Shown one piece after another: positions 9,419 through 26,376 of a stretch of 64,000 nt of DNA; position 1 is the stretch's first letter, and every line of letters starts with the position of its first letter. The DNA lies in IMG/VR virus record IMGVR_UViG_3300007734_000755, positions 1-64,000 of that record. One strand, written 5' to 3'. A model generated the notes under the pieces. The model did not search any database. It was not told where the DNA came from and worked only from the letters and a program-made list of their open reading frames with translations. Position numbers and translations under genes: made by a program. This stretch comes from a virus.

Positions 9419-9582
9419 TTCAACTTCTCCTATACAGTAACTATTACAACCATTTGTGAACCGCAACCGAAAGAGCTGCAATCAAAGGGAGTAAGCATAT
9501 CGAACCAAACATCATGTCGTTTGCAGACATAGGAACCTCTTAATTTTATTGTTGTGTGTTGTTGTGGAAATCTAACTGATTC

Positions 9583-10030: not shown

Positions 10031-10055
10031 GACATTCTCCTTTTGTTTCTATTAG

Positions 10056-10130
10056 TTGCGGAAGCAGGATTTGAACCTGCGACCTCTTGGTTATGAGCCA
10101 AGCGAGCTGACCTTACTGCTCTATCCCGCA
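10056..10130 (-). tRNA. tRNA-Met(CAT), initiator-like
   Basis: anticodon loop CTCATAA; A11:U24 pair and TTCAAAT T loop as in fMet tRNAs, but only two G-C pairs at the base of the anticodon stem. Confidence 0.9.
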
Positions 10131-10302
10131 ATCGTATCTCTGTGTAACTACTATCGTTAGTGCCTATTTTCCTTAAGTAAATACTTCCACCTACTAAATA
10201 AGCAAACTCGGCTGGCCCCTAGCCTTTCTATTCATTCAACGGACGAGAACCATGAGGATTAGGCTAACAACCCAATGGACGATAACTCGTTGAAACGATT
10301 AG

Positions 10303-10382
10303 TCGCGCCAATCGGATTTGCACCGACATCTTGAAGCTGGTATTGCTTCACGTTTTACTTTGTGTAGTTAAACTATGGCACA
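10303..10382 (-). ncRNA. non-canonical tRNA-like RNA
   Basis: acceptor TGTGCCA/TGGCGCG, D stem GTTT/AAAC with 14-nt loop, TGAAGC-AATACCA-GCTTCA arm, T arm GTCGG-TGCAAAT-CCGAT. Confidence 0.6.
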
Positions 10383-10452
10383 GGTGGAATTTACGGGAAT
10401 CGAACCCGTCCGGTCAGCTATATCAGCTGGAGCCTTTATCCATGAGAATCCC
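10383..10452 (-). ncRNA. tmRNA tRNA-like-domain (TLD)-like mini RNA
   Basis: GGGATTC/AAATTCC-A-CC acceptor with G3:U70; stemless D loop with GGAT; T arm ACGGG-TTCGATT-CCCGT. Confidence 0.55.
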
Positions 10453-10458
10453 ATAAGT

Positions 10459-10860
10459 TTATTGTTCTGTAAGTTCGTTAACTTCCTCGAAGGAAACTCC
10501 CTCGGAATAGTAACCGTTGCTTTCACCCTTCCAGCGAATATCAACATAGCCCTTTTGAGTCGCAAACTTGTAGAATGTCCACGTTTGGCTTCGATAATCG
10601 GTTTCGGATTTATTCGTGGAGACCTCTGCGAGACAGATTGGCGAATTCACTAGGAATTCCAATTCACCCTCGATTTCCGTAATGTTTACCGACTCGCAAC
10701 AGTCTTGAATATGACCCATGCGATACGTCTGGCCGGATTCCGTAATGAACTCAATGATATCGTCACCGTCGCTAACACCACGTTGGCAAAAGGCCAGGAC
10801 TTGACCAAGAAGTTCGCCAACATCGGCGTGACGATTAAGGCCATTGTAATTATACTTCAT
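10459..10860 (-). CDS. conserved-looking phage hypothetical protein (HxQDCCExV...NGYYSE)
   Basis: motif-rich 133-aa ORF with GGAG RBS. Confidence 0.7.
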   Translation of the reverse strand: MKYNYNGLNRHADVGELLGQVLAFCQRGVSDGDDIIEFITESGQTYRMGHIQDCCESVNITEIEGELEFLVNSPICLAEVSTNKSETDYRSQTWTFYKFATQKGYVDIRWKGESNGYYSEGVSFEEVNELTEQ

Positions 10861-11689: not shown

Positions 11690-11765
11690 TGGTTCTACAA
11701 GGGAGAGTTGAACTCCCATTTCCCCGCTACAATGCGAGGGTTCTAACCCATTGAACTATTGTAGA
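11690..11765 (-). ncRNA. tRNA-like RNA with 6-nt anticodon loop and encoded CCA
   Basis: perfect acceptor TCTACAA/TTGTAGA, D and T arms intact, CTCGC-ATTGTA-GCGGG. Confidence 0.75.
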
Positions 11766-13076: not shown

Positions 13077-13453
13077 AGCTTACCACCGTTTTTTCTGCTT
13101 GTCAACCCCTCATTTCATTCAGCTTCTTGAGAAGCCGTTTTCATTGAGAGATTTCAGGGACTTTGCAGAACCGCTTGAGTTCTGCTGACTGCCCCAGTGT
13201 ACCACCGTTTTTTACCCTTGTCAACCCCTCATTTCATTGAGTTTCTTGACTTTGTTGGTTTTTTCCGGGAGACCTTGCAGAACCGCTTGAGTTCTGCTGA
13301 CTGCCCCAGTGTAACCTACTTTGGGTCGAGTGTCAAGAGCTGTTTTTATTGGCTTCTTGATAATCATTCGGCTTCTTTTTTTTCTTGGACTTTGCAGAAC
13401 CGCTTAAGTTCTGCTGACTGCCCCAGTGTACCACCGTTTTTTACCCTTGTCAA
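13077..13453 (-). repeat. four tandem ~115-bp promoter units
   Basis: TTGACA-17-TACACT at 13425-13453, 13308-13336, 13196-13224 and TTGACA-17-TAAGCT at 13077-13105; three share the downstream GGGGCAGTCAGCAGAACTYAAGCGGTTCTGCAA. Confidence 0.9.
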
Positions 13454-13613
13454 CAGCTGATTTTATTGGCCTTTGACAAGTAGCAGGAACGGCTAAAGAA
13501 TTCTAAAAGCGGAATTAGACTGGCGCGAAGCCTGTCTCGATTTCCAAGAGCATCTTAGCACGTTCAGCAGAGAAGTCAAGTTGGTTGAAATCATTGAGGA
13601 AGGGTGAGAACTC

Positions 13614-18455: not shown

Positions 18456-18692
18456 CTATTTTTTATAATTTTCCGAAATGCGTTCTCCATTAGTATACCA
18501 AAATTCCGCCACCGTAGTTATGATTGCTGGGCCATCATCTCTGTGGAGCTTACCATATTGATACCAATATTCTGCACCACCGCCTATATGGGCCGGTAGA
18601 TCATTATCTCTGTGAAGATCTCCGTTCTTATCCCAACTAACTATTTTTTTTCCAGTATTACTAAATGAGATAATAAGGATTATTTGCTTCAT
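18456..18692 (-). CDS. LHRDNDLPA-family small protein
   Basis: LHRDNDLPA and LHRDDGPA repeats. Confidence 0.7.
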   Translation of the reverse strand: MKQIILIISFSNTGKKIVSWDKNGDLHRDNDLPAHIGGGAEYWYQYGKLHRDDGPAIITTVAEFWYTNGERISENYKK

Positions 18693-19102
18693 AACTTCAT
18701 CATTTCAAATTGATTATGACCAGATGAATAAAAGACTCTCTTAACTCCCACAAATTTCATTGCTTCCTGGCACATGAGGCAGGGACGAGAATTACGAAAC
18801 TCACCAAAGATATTGGTTCTTACAACATAAACGTCGGAGTTAGCTGTATTTTCTCTGCCCATATTAAGAATAGCTCCCAACTCAGCGTGCAAGGTTGCCA
18901 ACCCAATGTTTCTTTCTCTGAATCTTTCACCGAACGAGCAGGACTTATTCTTGTTACAACTCGCATTTAATACGGAGCCATGTCTTACAAGAACAGCGCC
19001 GTGATTAAACTTCCCATAATCCGAAATTCTTGCCATTCTAGATGCGAACTCAAAAAACCGCATATTCCTTCCGACTGGTGCTATCTCAATGGCATTTCTC
19101 AT
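18689..19102 (-). CDS. cytidine/dCMP deaminase-family protein
   Basis: HGAVL, HAE and PCLMC zinc motif. Confidence 0.85.
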   Translation of the reverse strand: MRNAIEIAPVGRNMRFFEFASRMARISDYGKFNHGAVLVRHGSVLNASCNKNKSCSFGERFRERNIGLATLHAELGAILNMGRENTANSDVYVVRTNIFGEFRNSRPCLMCQEAMKFVGVKRVFYSSGHNQFEMMKL

Positions 19103-19556
19103 TAGTCCTCTATAGATTCAAAACGATCACTTTCAATAAGCTCAATAAGTTCCCCAATCTCCTTTACAACCTTAATCATTTTAAAGTAATGAGGAGGCAT
19201 TGAGACTGTATTTTCTGAAGACATTTCTATCTCCATTCTCTTGACTGCTAATTCTGTTTCCTGAAACAGGACTTCTGAGCAGGTTTCAAAAGCCTCTCTC
19301 ATTCTCCTAATAGAATCCTTCTTGTTTAGATAATAAACATATCTGGTGCTTTTGTTACTCATCTTCTACTCCGCTCTCGCTATAACATGAAATATCTGGT
19401 TGATAAATATCCTCGATATCCGTCTTGAATTCGCACCAAAGACAAACTTTATCATGGTTAACATCTTTTTCGTCGTGTTCAATTTTACATTTCTTACAAA
19501 GAACTAACATGGAGGATCCTTCTATACAGAGACTATATCAGGAGACATCATTTAGG

Positions 19557-19817: not shown

Positions 19818-19867
19818 CTGTCCTGTGTTATGAGCGGAAAAGTCACTTAATAAACCTCTCCTGCCAT

Positions 19868-19940
19868 CGAATATATTGGACTCGAACCAACATACAGGAA
19901 ATAACGTTCCTGCTCTTTATCCCTTTGAGCTAATACCTTT
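19868..19940 (-). pseudogene. degenerate tRNA-like sequence
   Basis: D stem GCTC/GAGC, T arm GTTGG-TTCGAGT-CCAAT, arm AGGAA-CGTTAT-TTCCT; weak acceptor stem. Confidence 0.5.
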
Positions 19941-22441: not shown

Positions 22442-22446
22442 AATTG

Positions 22447-22515
22447 TGGACCGCCTGAGAGTCGAACTCAGCGCGGATTCCGTGCAAGGGATTCCTCCAC
22501 CCCGGTGGGCAGCCC
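22447..22515 (-). tRNA. tRNA-Ala(TGC) with shortened D arm
   Basis: G3:U70 acceptor GGGCTGC/GCGGTCC-A; loop CTTGCAC; D arm CCAC-CGGG-GTGG. Confidence 0.75.
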
Positions 22516-23893: not shown

Positions 23894-24391
23894 TTATCTT
23901 TTCCCACCCTGGATTACTCTAAAATTTCTTCGTCGAGCTTCCGGAGTCAAATTCTTCTTTGGCTGTTCGGTTTCTTTTAGCTCACCTTGATCTGTGACGA
24001 TTTGATTCTTGGCATCTCCAATTGCATAGACCGCACTCCAAGGGATAACACACCGGAAAGGCCTTCCTCTAAAGGAGAGGGTTGCGACTACCTGCTTATC
24101 ATCGAATTCGAAATCGGCTATATTGTATCGATAAGAGAAAGATAACACAAGAGATTGTTGATTCTTACAATCGTCGGGAACACAAACTCCGTCAACTCTA
24201 GCATCGAAATGCAGATGCGCTATTCCTTCTCTTAGGAAGAACTCAAAAAGCTTTCGCTTCTCAAGGTTGGTTGCATCTGTATCTTCCACTGAGTGGGTTT
24301 CCATCCCCGCTAAAATAGCGTTAAGCCTCGAGTAAGTAACAAGACCTAGAAAATTTGCTAATTTCTCAAATATTTCCTTAAGATTTCTCAT
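23894..24391 (-). CDS. sspB: SspB-like ClpXP adaptor
   Basis: HFDARVDGVCVP...LVLSFS...ATLSFRGRPFRCVIPWSAVYAI core and C-terminal FRVIQGGK tail. Confidence 0.8.
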   Translation of the reverse strand: MRNLKEIFEKLANFLGLVTYSRLNAILAGMETHSVEDTDATNLEKRKLFEFFLREGIAHLHFDARVDGVCVPDDCKNQQSLVLSFSYRYNIADFEFDDKQVVATLSFRGRPFRCVIPWSAVYAIGDAKNQIVTDQGELKETEQPKKNLTPEARRRNFRVIQGGKR

Positions 24392-26288: not shown

Positions 26289-26376
26289 TGGTGCGCCCTG
26301 GAGGAATTGAACCTCAACGACACCACCAACCTAGTTTAGTCAAAGGCTTATAAGACCCCCGGTTGGAGCAAGGCGC
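26289..26376 (-). ncRNA. D-armless tRNA-Ile(TAT)-like RNA with encoded CCA
   Basis: acceptor GCGCCTT/AGGGCGC-ACCA; loop CTTATAA; T loop TTCAATT; CCAACC pairs with GGTTGG instead of a D arm. Confidence 0.75.

Follow-up and report, generated by a model that had tools for sequence, protein, structure and literature searches.

A 70-nt anticodon-less, tRNA-shaped element with alanine identity marks in a phage tRNA array

Among the known tRNA-like processing signals are the t-elements of plant mitochondria, mascRNA and tRNA punctuation. In these systems, as at the locus described here, a non-decoding tRNA shape stands directly after a coding region, and by analogy RNase P or RNase Z could use such shapes to define the ends of RNAs. 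Alanine identity marks, which the element of this study carries, are not needed for a role of that kind. A phage tmRNA consisting of only the tRNA-like domain (TLD) is already known from mycobacteriophage DS6A, whose tmRNA has been described as 'little more than the TLD' (PMC4131195, PMC11915505), and CDS-less tmRNA forms of about 65 bp occur in plastids (PMC11915505). According to PMC4131195, and also to PMC11915505, a DS6A-like molecule strongly inhibits tmRNA, perhaps by SmpB titration.

The TLD-only gene of DS6A is located at JN698994 28478-28560. Other TLD-only minis, 72-83 nt long, are found in IMG/VR contigs (L105:806-887, L057:6686-6766, L059:626-708, L094:9048-9119 and L053:160-241, the last listed with nine near-identical contigs). 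Those of L105 and L059 sit in dense phage tRNA arrays, and ARAGORN called none of these five types. DS6A and the minis of L105, L057, L059 and L094 share with our element a length of about 70-83 nt, G3:U70, A73 and a stemless D loop with GG; a seven-pair acceptor, a T arm, a helix in place of the anticodon arm and the lack of a tag frame are likewise common to the DS6A-type minis and the element. The element is 12 nt shorter than DS6A, with a two-base connector before the T arm. DS6A-type minis keep the tmRNA junction motifs, and most of them an A-rich loop motif, whereas the element is without the junction motifs.

The window analysed in this study covers the initial 64 kb of a freshwater phage record in IMG/VR that is 114.8 kb long and has an estimated completeness of 62%. 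The phage encodes the DNA polymerase III alpha subunit and a GroEL-like chaperonin. ARAGORN finds 15 tRNA genes in the window, all 15 on the minus strand, and the 70-nt element sits within this tRNA gene cluster. The evidence assembled below suggests that the element is a real tRNA-derived, non-decoding module with alanine marks, for which a role as a tmRNA mimic is possible.

Anatomy of the element and its place in the array

A letter-for-letter rereading of the minus strand returned the sequence given in the preliminary description, together with each of the features reported there: the alanine identity marks G3:U70 and A73, a stemless D region with GG, a very short link to the T arm, and a plain CAGCU/AGCUG hairpin replacing the anticodon arm (Table 1). 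The C-A mismatch at 7:66, raised there as a caveat, is also present. Six of the seven acceptor pairs are formed (1-6), pair 3:70 being G:U. A73 is followed by CC and then by U at base 76, so that CCA is only partly encoded. Four bases separate the GG from the acceptor stem, the same spacing as in the tmRNAs of related phages and in DS6A. The hairpin has a perfect stem, a loop of three to five bases and no anticodon, and five bases separate its 3' strand from the T arm, a tRNA-like distance; the T arm itself is a perfect five-pair stem with the loop UUCGAUU. Since the hairpin sequence is unique within the window, we dropped the idea that it belongs to a repeated palindrome family.

Table 1. Parts of the 70-nt element and features of the surrounding locus
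Feature	Coordinates in the window	Strand	Basis or remark
DUF7448 gene	10459..10860	-	Pfam PF24240, 88.5 bits; stop codon 6 bases before the element
70-nt anticodon-less tRNA-shaped element	10383..10452	-	sequence reading
Acceptor 5' strand	10452-10446	-	sequence reading
Stemless D-like loop, 11 bases	10445-10435	-	sequence reading
Hairpin, GG/CC plus 5-6 bp stem	10434-10412	-	sequence reading
Two-base connector	10411-10410	-	sequence reading
T arm	10409-10393	-	sequence reading
Acceptor 3' strand	10392-10386	-	sequence reading
A73	10385	-	sequence reading
CC	10384-10383	-	sequence reading
Second non-canonical tRNA-like gene	10303..10382	-	full-cloverleaf lowest-energy fold
Conserved non-coding block	10157..10299	-	~88% identity to L114:1181-1325
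tRNA-Met(CAU), next canonical array member	10055..10130	-	ARAGORN; Rfam tRNA 68.4 bits
Tandem sigma-70-like promoters	13196..13579	-	three TTGACA-17-TACACT sites plus a fourth, weaker one
Empty junction, the tmRNA site of related phages	19095..19110	-	ORFs 19102-19362 and 18689-19102 abut
SspB-like gene	23894..24391	-	Pfam PF04386, 32.5-32.6 bits (cut-off 27)

The shape of the element is more than chance. When the 3' half was held fixed and a 5' partner was sought in random 75-mers of the same strand, at least six of seven acceptor pairs arose in 26% of the trials, a correctly placed GG in addition in 5.6%, and intact pairs 1 and 2 with G3:U70 as well in 1.1%. Rfam places the element in the tRNA clan, with an E value of 8e-5 in a 601-base search and of 3.7e-6 in the 114.8-kb record. 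Thermodynamics alone gives the structure no support: the z-score is -0.02 to -0.25, that is, the element is no stabler than shuffled sequence, and the addition of 18 upstream bases changes its lowest-energy fold.

A lake-water run from a different study contains a 263-base contig that spans 10271-10533 with 0 differences; the sequence is therefore real, is no assembly artefact and is in circulation in fresh water. In river and lake runs there is also a strain of about 90% identity, seen only in short DNA contigs covering neighbouring genes. Among the sequencing runs that contain the region there is no RNA run. Among the DNA contigs no variant copy of the element was found, the sole further copy being the identical one.

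Regarding transcription, no minus-strand promoter was found adjoining the element. Upstream of it, where the tRNA array begins, stand strong tandem promoters, and the stretch from there to the element showed no convincing terminator on the minus strand. The tandem promoters are therefore the likely source of a transcript, in which the element would be co-transcribed with the array. These promoters belong to an 88-base repeat, present three times at 13152-13579 (minus strand), each copy with one TTGACA-17-TACACT promoter; the fourth, weaker promoter lies upstream.

Several other genes of the cluster have odd features. The minus-strand tRNA-like genes at 11690-11765, 19867-19939, 22446-22515 and 26292-26376 include one with a non-standard anticodon loop (ARAGORN 'tRNA-???') and two that stay below threshold as tRNAs, at 23.7 and 17.3 bits. 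A 70-nt tRNA-Ala(UGC) among the odd genes of the window has a shortened D arm and is missed by Rfam at the gathering score. Elsewhere, on the minus strand of a 135-kb viral contig (L286:3092-3160), an uncalled mini tRNA-like sequence with a GGCC palindrome hairpin lies inside an array of 18 tRNAs.

Two further readings of the sequence around the element were set aside. A coding one, in which a 28-aa ATG frame or a 65-aa TTG frame (10368-10565) would cross the element, lacks a ribosome-binding site and overlaps DUF7448 in another frame. The tie of a 30-base repeat (9528-9557) to the 5' end of the element was judged to be chance.

Comparison with the tRNA and tmRNA families

The Rfam tRNA model RF00005 matches the element over its T arm only (10393-10409), with 12.5 bits against a membership score of 29 bits; with this model 13 tRNAs of the record score 38-72 bits. 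ARAGORN makes no call on the element at default settings, and, as judged by the two programs, canonical tRNA identity is lacking. At a threshold of 90%, with a seven-base loop, ARAGORN proposes a tRNA-Tyr(AUA) at 10386-10460. We rejected this call, which has a shifted acceptor made up entirely of A and U, two mismatches and G33.

The D-loop motif of the element, with the AAG behind it, is what phage tRNA-Arg(UCU) and tRNA-Lys commonly have as D loop and 3' strand of the D stem. It was seen as such in 60 of 70 pattern matches, which points to a tRNA origin of the element. With canonical tRNAs, in particular phage tRNA-Arg and tRNA-Lys and also tRNA-Ala, the element shares its T arm and acceptor stem, the sequence of the D loop, the five bases between hairpin and T arm and its setting in a tRNA array. 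In contrast to them, the element has no D stem and no seven-base anticodon loop with U33, and its match to the tRNA model is local only. The simplest derivation would be from a tRNA that lost the 5' D-stem strand and part of the anticodon loop; no similar tRNA that might have been the source was found in the phage record.

The preliminary description had taken the element for a tmRNA TLD, a proposal that fits the shape but is not supported by the sequence. The Rfam tmRNA model RF00023 gives it 17 bits (10382-10452), under the gathering score of 47, and ARAGORN calls no tmRNA at the element even at lowered thresholds. In related phages, ordinary tRNAs (for Leu, Thr, Ser, Lys, Pro and Tyr) receive 13-24 bits from the same model, and the match of the element has the form of sub-threshold tRNA matches, in which both ends of the model are aligned and its middle is skipped. 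Four TLD-only minis from other phage contigs, obtained by a pattern scan of IMG/VR, score 70.8, 64.4, 64.4 and 42.3 bits. As the conserved L053-type family of minis reaches only 22 bits, a low RF00023 score is no proof against TLD-like behaviour.

We also used a covariance model, R1, built from six DS6A-like minis that show compensatory changes in all three helices, with DS6A itself held out. R1 scores DS6A at 57.1, L094 at 47.9, the element at 31.0 and the best ordinary tRNA at 30.2 bits. DS6A-type minis thus receive 42-71 bits from RF00023 and 48-57 from R1, as against 17 and 31 for the element. Two motifs unite the tmRNAs of related phages and the DS6A-like minis, GGAUUCGAC or a close variant of it behind the GG of the D loop and GGAC ahead of the T stem; neither motif is present in the sequence of the element. 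Nor is there in it an mRNA-like domain with a resume codon, a tag frame and pseudoknots, only 27 bases lying between the TLD halves, and Rfam finds no other tmRNA match in the whole 114.8-kb record. By one calibrated sequence test, then, the element has the outline of a tmRNA TLD but falls outside the tmRNA family, and these scores favour a cut-down tRNA over a true mini-tmRNA.

Neighbouring units, related phages and searches for homologues

A second tRNA-like unit begins directly behind the CC of the element. Its lowest-energy fold is a full cloverleaf with all four stems (z -3.06). There is a G at position 55 of its T loop and no GG in its D loop, and the anticodon loop reads AAUACCA (A33); at default settings the unit receives no ARAGORN call. 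The sole close relative of the flanks of the element is a 1.4-kb JGI contig, L114, whose DUF7448 protein is 76% identical in amino acids. In L114 the DUF7448 stop is followed by two bases, a canonical tRNA-Lys(UUU) and then a 145-base block of about 88% identity. The tRNA-Lys(UUU) aligns with the second unit of the window as its positional counterpart, and the alignment contains no counterpart of the 70-nt element. The keeping of stems while decoding features are lost is a recurring pattern in the lineage of the element, and for this reason we rank a structural or processing role first.

The block downstream of the second unit is more conserved than the neighbouring protein (about 88% against 76%). 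It includes a helix with one double compensatory change (CCAU/AUGG versus CCGC/GCGG) and matches no Rfam family; we regard it as a candidate structured RNA. One gene upstream of DUF7448, L114 also carries a mini tRNA-like sequence of its own (444-499 within 431-502; z -3.25), composed of a seven-pair acceptor, a T arm and a hairpin whose six pairs close a loop of eight bases. It is without alanine marks and has no G3:U70, and its first six bases and its T loop are the same as in the window element.

No homologue of the element was found in phage records, IMG/VR, JGI metagenomes or GTDB genomes. A blastn search with 10130-10560 against 50,697 phage records gave no match, no exact 20-mer occurs in IMG/VR, and a DNA search of five related records matched only the T arm of a tRNA-Glu. 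Three further pattern scans brought up nothing but ordinary tRNAs, unrelated minis and the 3' ends of full tmRNAs, and the three matches from a scan of GTDB genomes were all unrelated. The flanking DUF7448 gene led to 11 viral and 80 metagenome loci, L114 alone being close; relatives of the neighbouring 274-aa protein were not found, and the dCMP-deaminase neighbour gave distant loci only. Gene content shared with mini-carrying phages was limited to two weak matches to L059. Two candidates were discarded: L087, the nearest-looking one, is the acceptor piece of a permuted tmRNA according to ARAGORN, and L065 was called as a tRNA-Ile.

Relatives of the phage itself were found through DNA polymerase III alpha, at 40-78% identity. 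A full one-piece tmRNA of 359-363 nt (RF00023, 111-126 bits) is present in all five related records that reach the site. These tmRNA-bearing relatives, L194-L198 (the records of L014, L043, L018, L017 and L019), are freshwater phages. The tags of their tmRNAs end in YAVAA or YALAA and are alphaproteobacteria-like. The L194-L198 tmRNAs resemble the element in belonging to the same phage group, in their alanine-type acceptor and in the four bases from acceptor to GG; unlike the element, they have pseudoknots, a tag frame (ending, for example, in YAVAA) and a different place in the genome. In the window their site is empty: the flanking genes abut at 19102, and homologues of these genes flank the tmRNA in L050. 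Decay in situ of the tmRNA of the relatives was therefore rejected as the origin of the element, as the tmRNA site lies elsewhere (about 19102) and is cleanly empty.

The claim that the phage encodes SspB was borne out by a Pfam match above the cut-off (Table 1). None of the five related records contains a gene for the SspB-like protein, which has 165 aa. When 5.8 billion proteins were searched by words for near relatives, only the self match came back, and no SmpB gene was found in the phage record. The complementary pattern of a full tmRNA in the relatives versus a mini RNA plus SspB here comes from one genome.

Possible roles of the element

We tentatively favour, with a probability of roughly 0.4, the reading that the element is a tRNA-derived module unable to decode, kept for its excision by tRNA-processing enzymes, and that the released RNA is probably chargeable with alanine. 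Its primary role would most likely be transcript punctuation. The element appears to have lost the 5' D-stem strand and a usable anticodon loop. What AlaRS and the enzymes of tRNA processing would read is still there, namely the acceptor with G3:U70 and A73, the T arm, and the GG of the D loop, which forms the elbow. On this proposal the element would be transcribed within a long minus-strand RNA of the tRNA array, starting from the tandem promoters. RNase P would cut at G1, six bases past the DUF7448 stop, where the DUF7448 message would end as well. A further RNase P cut, at the abutting unit, would give the element its 3' end ACC, which the CCA-adding enzyme would complete, and the released 70-nt RNA would then probably be a substrate of AlaRS. 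We infer transcription, processing, charging and any action in trans. By the model scores and the junction motifs, the element is best described as a shape analogue of the tRNA-like domain of tmRNA that would have arisen by loss from a tRNA, and not as a sequence member of the tmRNA family.

The placement is that of a processing signal: the element starts six bases after a stop codon, has no promoter of its own and abuts the next tRNA-like unit. In L114 the tRNA-Lys stands in the same slot after DUF7448 and would do the same punctuation job. Several points count against a processing role. A mere processing signal would not be expected to combine G3:U70 and A73 with intact pairs 1-3, which chance would give in about 1% of cases, and this combination fits an alanine-dependent role. 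The tRNA-Met and tRNA-Tyr nearby could punctuate the transcript without the element, the fold is no stabler than shuffled sequence, and an alternative fold competes when upstream bases are included. The failure to find a homologue weighs on that side too.

G3:U70, A73, a stemless D loop with a tmRNA-spaced GG and the lack of an anticodon are also what would be expected of a TLD-only mini-tmRNA analogue, which would be alanylated, bind host SmpB and EF-Tu and serve as a decoy or in tag-less rescue, perhaps together with SspB. It might titrate SmpB or enter stalled ribosomes without a tag, and trans-translation would be blocked or re-routed; the inhibition of tmRNA by a TLD-only-like molecule is said to go back to Mao et al. 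2009. We think this reading somewhat unlikely. In its favour are the precedent of DS6A and the occurrence of DS6A-like minis, with covariation shown, in phage tRNA arrays (L105, L059). It also gains from the contrast between a full tmRNA in five of five related records and none at the site or elsewhere in the 114.8-kb record here, from the SspB present in this phage only as against the five relatives, and from the likewise low RF00023 score (22 bits) of the L053-type family. However, the junction motifs are absent, RF00023 scores the element like ordinary tRNAs, R1 fails to separate it from tRNAs, and the element is an orphan. A decoy that keeps proteins from being tagged sits awkwardly beside an SspB, which would hasten the degradation of proteins once they carry the tag, and in a record that is 62% complete a full tmRNA may lie in the remainder. 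The stronger form of this idea is quite improbable in our judgement. It holds that the element is a convergent analogue of the tmRNA TLD made from a phage tRNA, charged with alanine and carried by SmpB, which replaces the full tmRNA of the relatives and works with SspB. To the same degree we doubt its corollary, that the element and SspB re-route the trans-translation and ClpXP proteolysis of the host.

Turnover of the array might instead have left an inert, decaying tRNA pseudogene without any role, whose alanine marks were inherited from a tRNA-Ala or gained by a C70-to-U change. The array is indeed rich in odd or sub-threshold tRNA-like genes (11690-11765, 19867-19939, 26292-26376, 10303-10382 and the 70-nt tRNA-Ala), the element is missing from L114, the only close relative of the flanks, its fold is not unusually stable, and a tRNA could have given rise to it by two short deletions and one mismatch. 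A pseudogene is nevertheless unlikely, given a T arm (17/17) and a hairpin without flaw, an intact top of the acceptor and the lack in the phage of a similar source tRNA. Moreover, the flanks have diverged so far from L114 (76% aa) that old neutral DNA would be unrecognisable, and any decay would have to be recent. Very improbable, by comparison with all of these, are two other readings: that the element is a decoding tRNA of an unusual kind, or that it forms one part of a tmRNA that is split or permuted and has its coding part elsewhere. The tRNA-Tyr(AUA) call of ARAGORN at 90% would speak for the former, but it requires the all-A/U acceptor with two mismatches and has G33, and the real hairpin loop has three to five bases. 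Permuted phage tmRNAs do exist (L087), but the order of the parts in the element is standard. As for a split tmRNA, no tag frame follows the element, the downstream block is shared with L114, where it stands after an ordinary tRNA-Lys, and neither ARAGORN nor Rfam finds a tmRNA piece in the record.

The comparisons made here provide a means of sorting other candidates, as RF00023 gives about 13-24 bits to any tRNA and 42-71 bits to most real TLD-only minis. If the element is no more than a cut-down tRNA retained for processing, it would be one more case in which a phage re-uses the tRNA shape without decoding. If it is charged and bound by SmpB, this would show that an RNA for tmRNA blocking or tag-less rescue can be made by phages out of an ordinary tRNA, without drawing on tmRNA itself. 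Both strategies could then be compared within one clade, the relatives having a full tmRNA and the phage described here a mini RNA with SspB.
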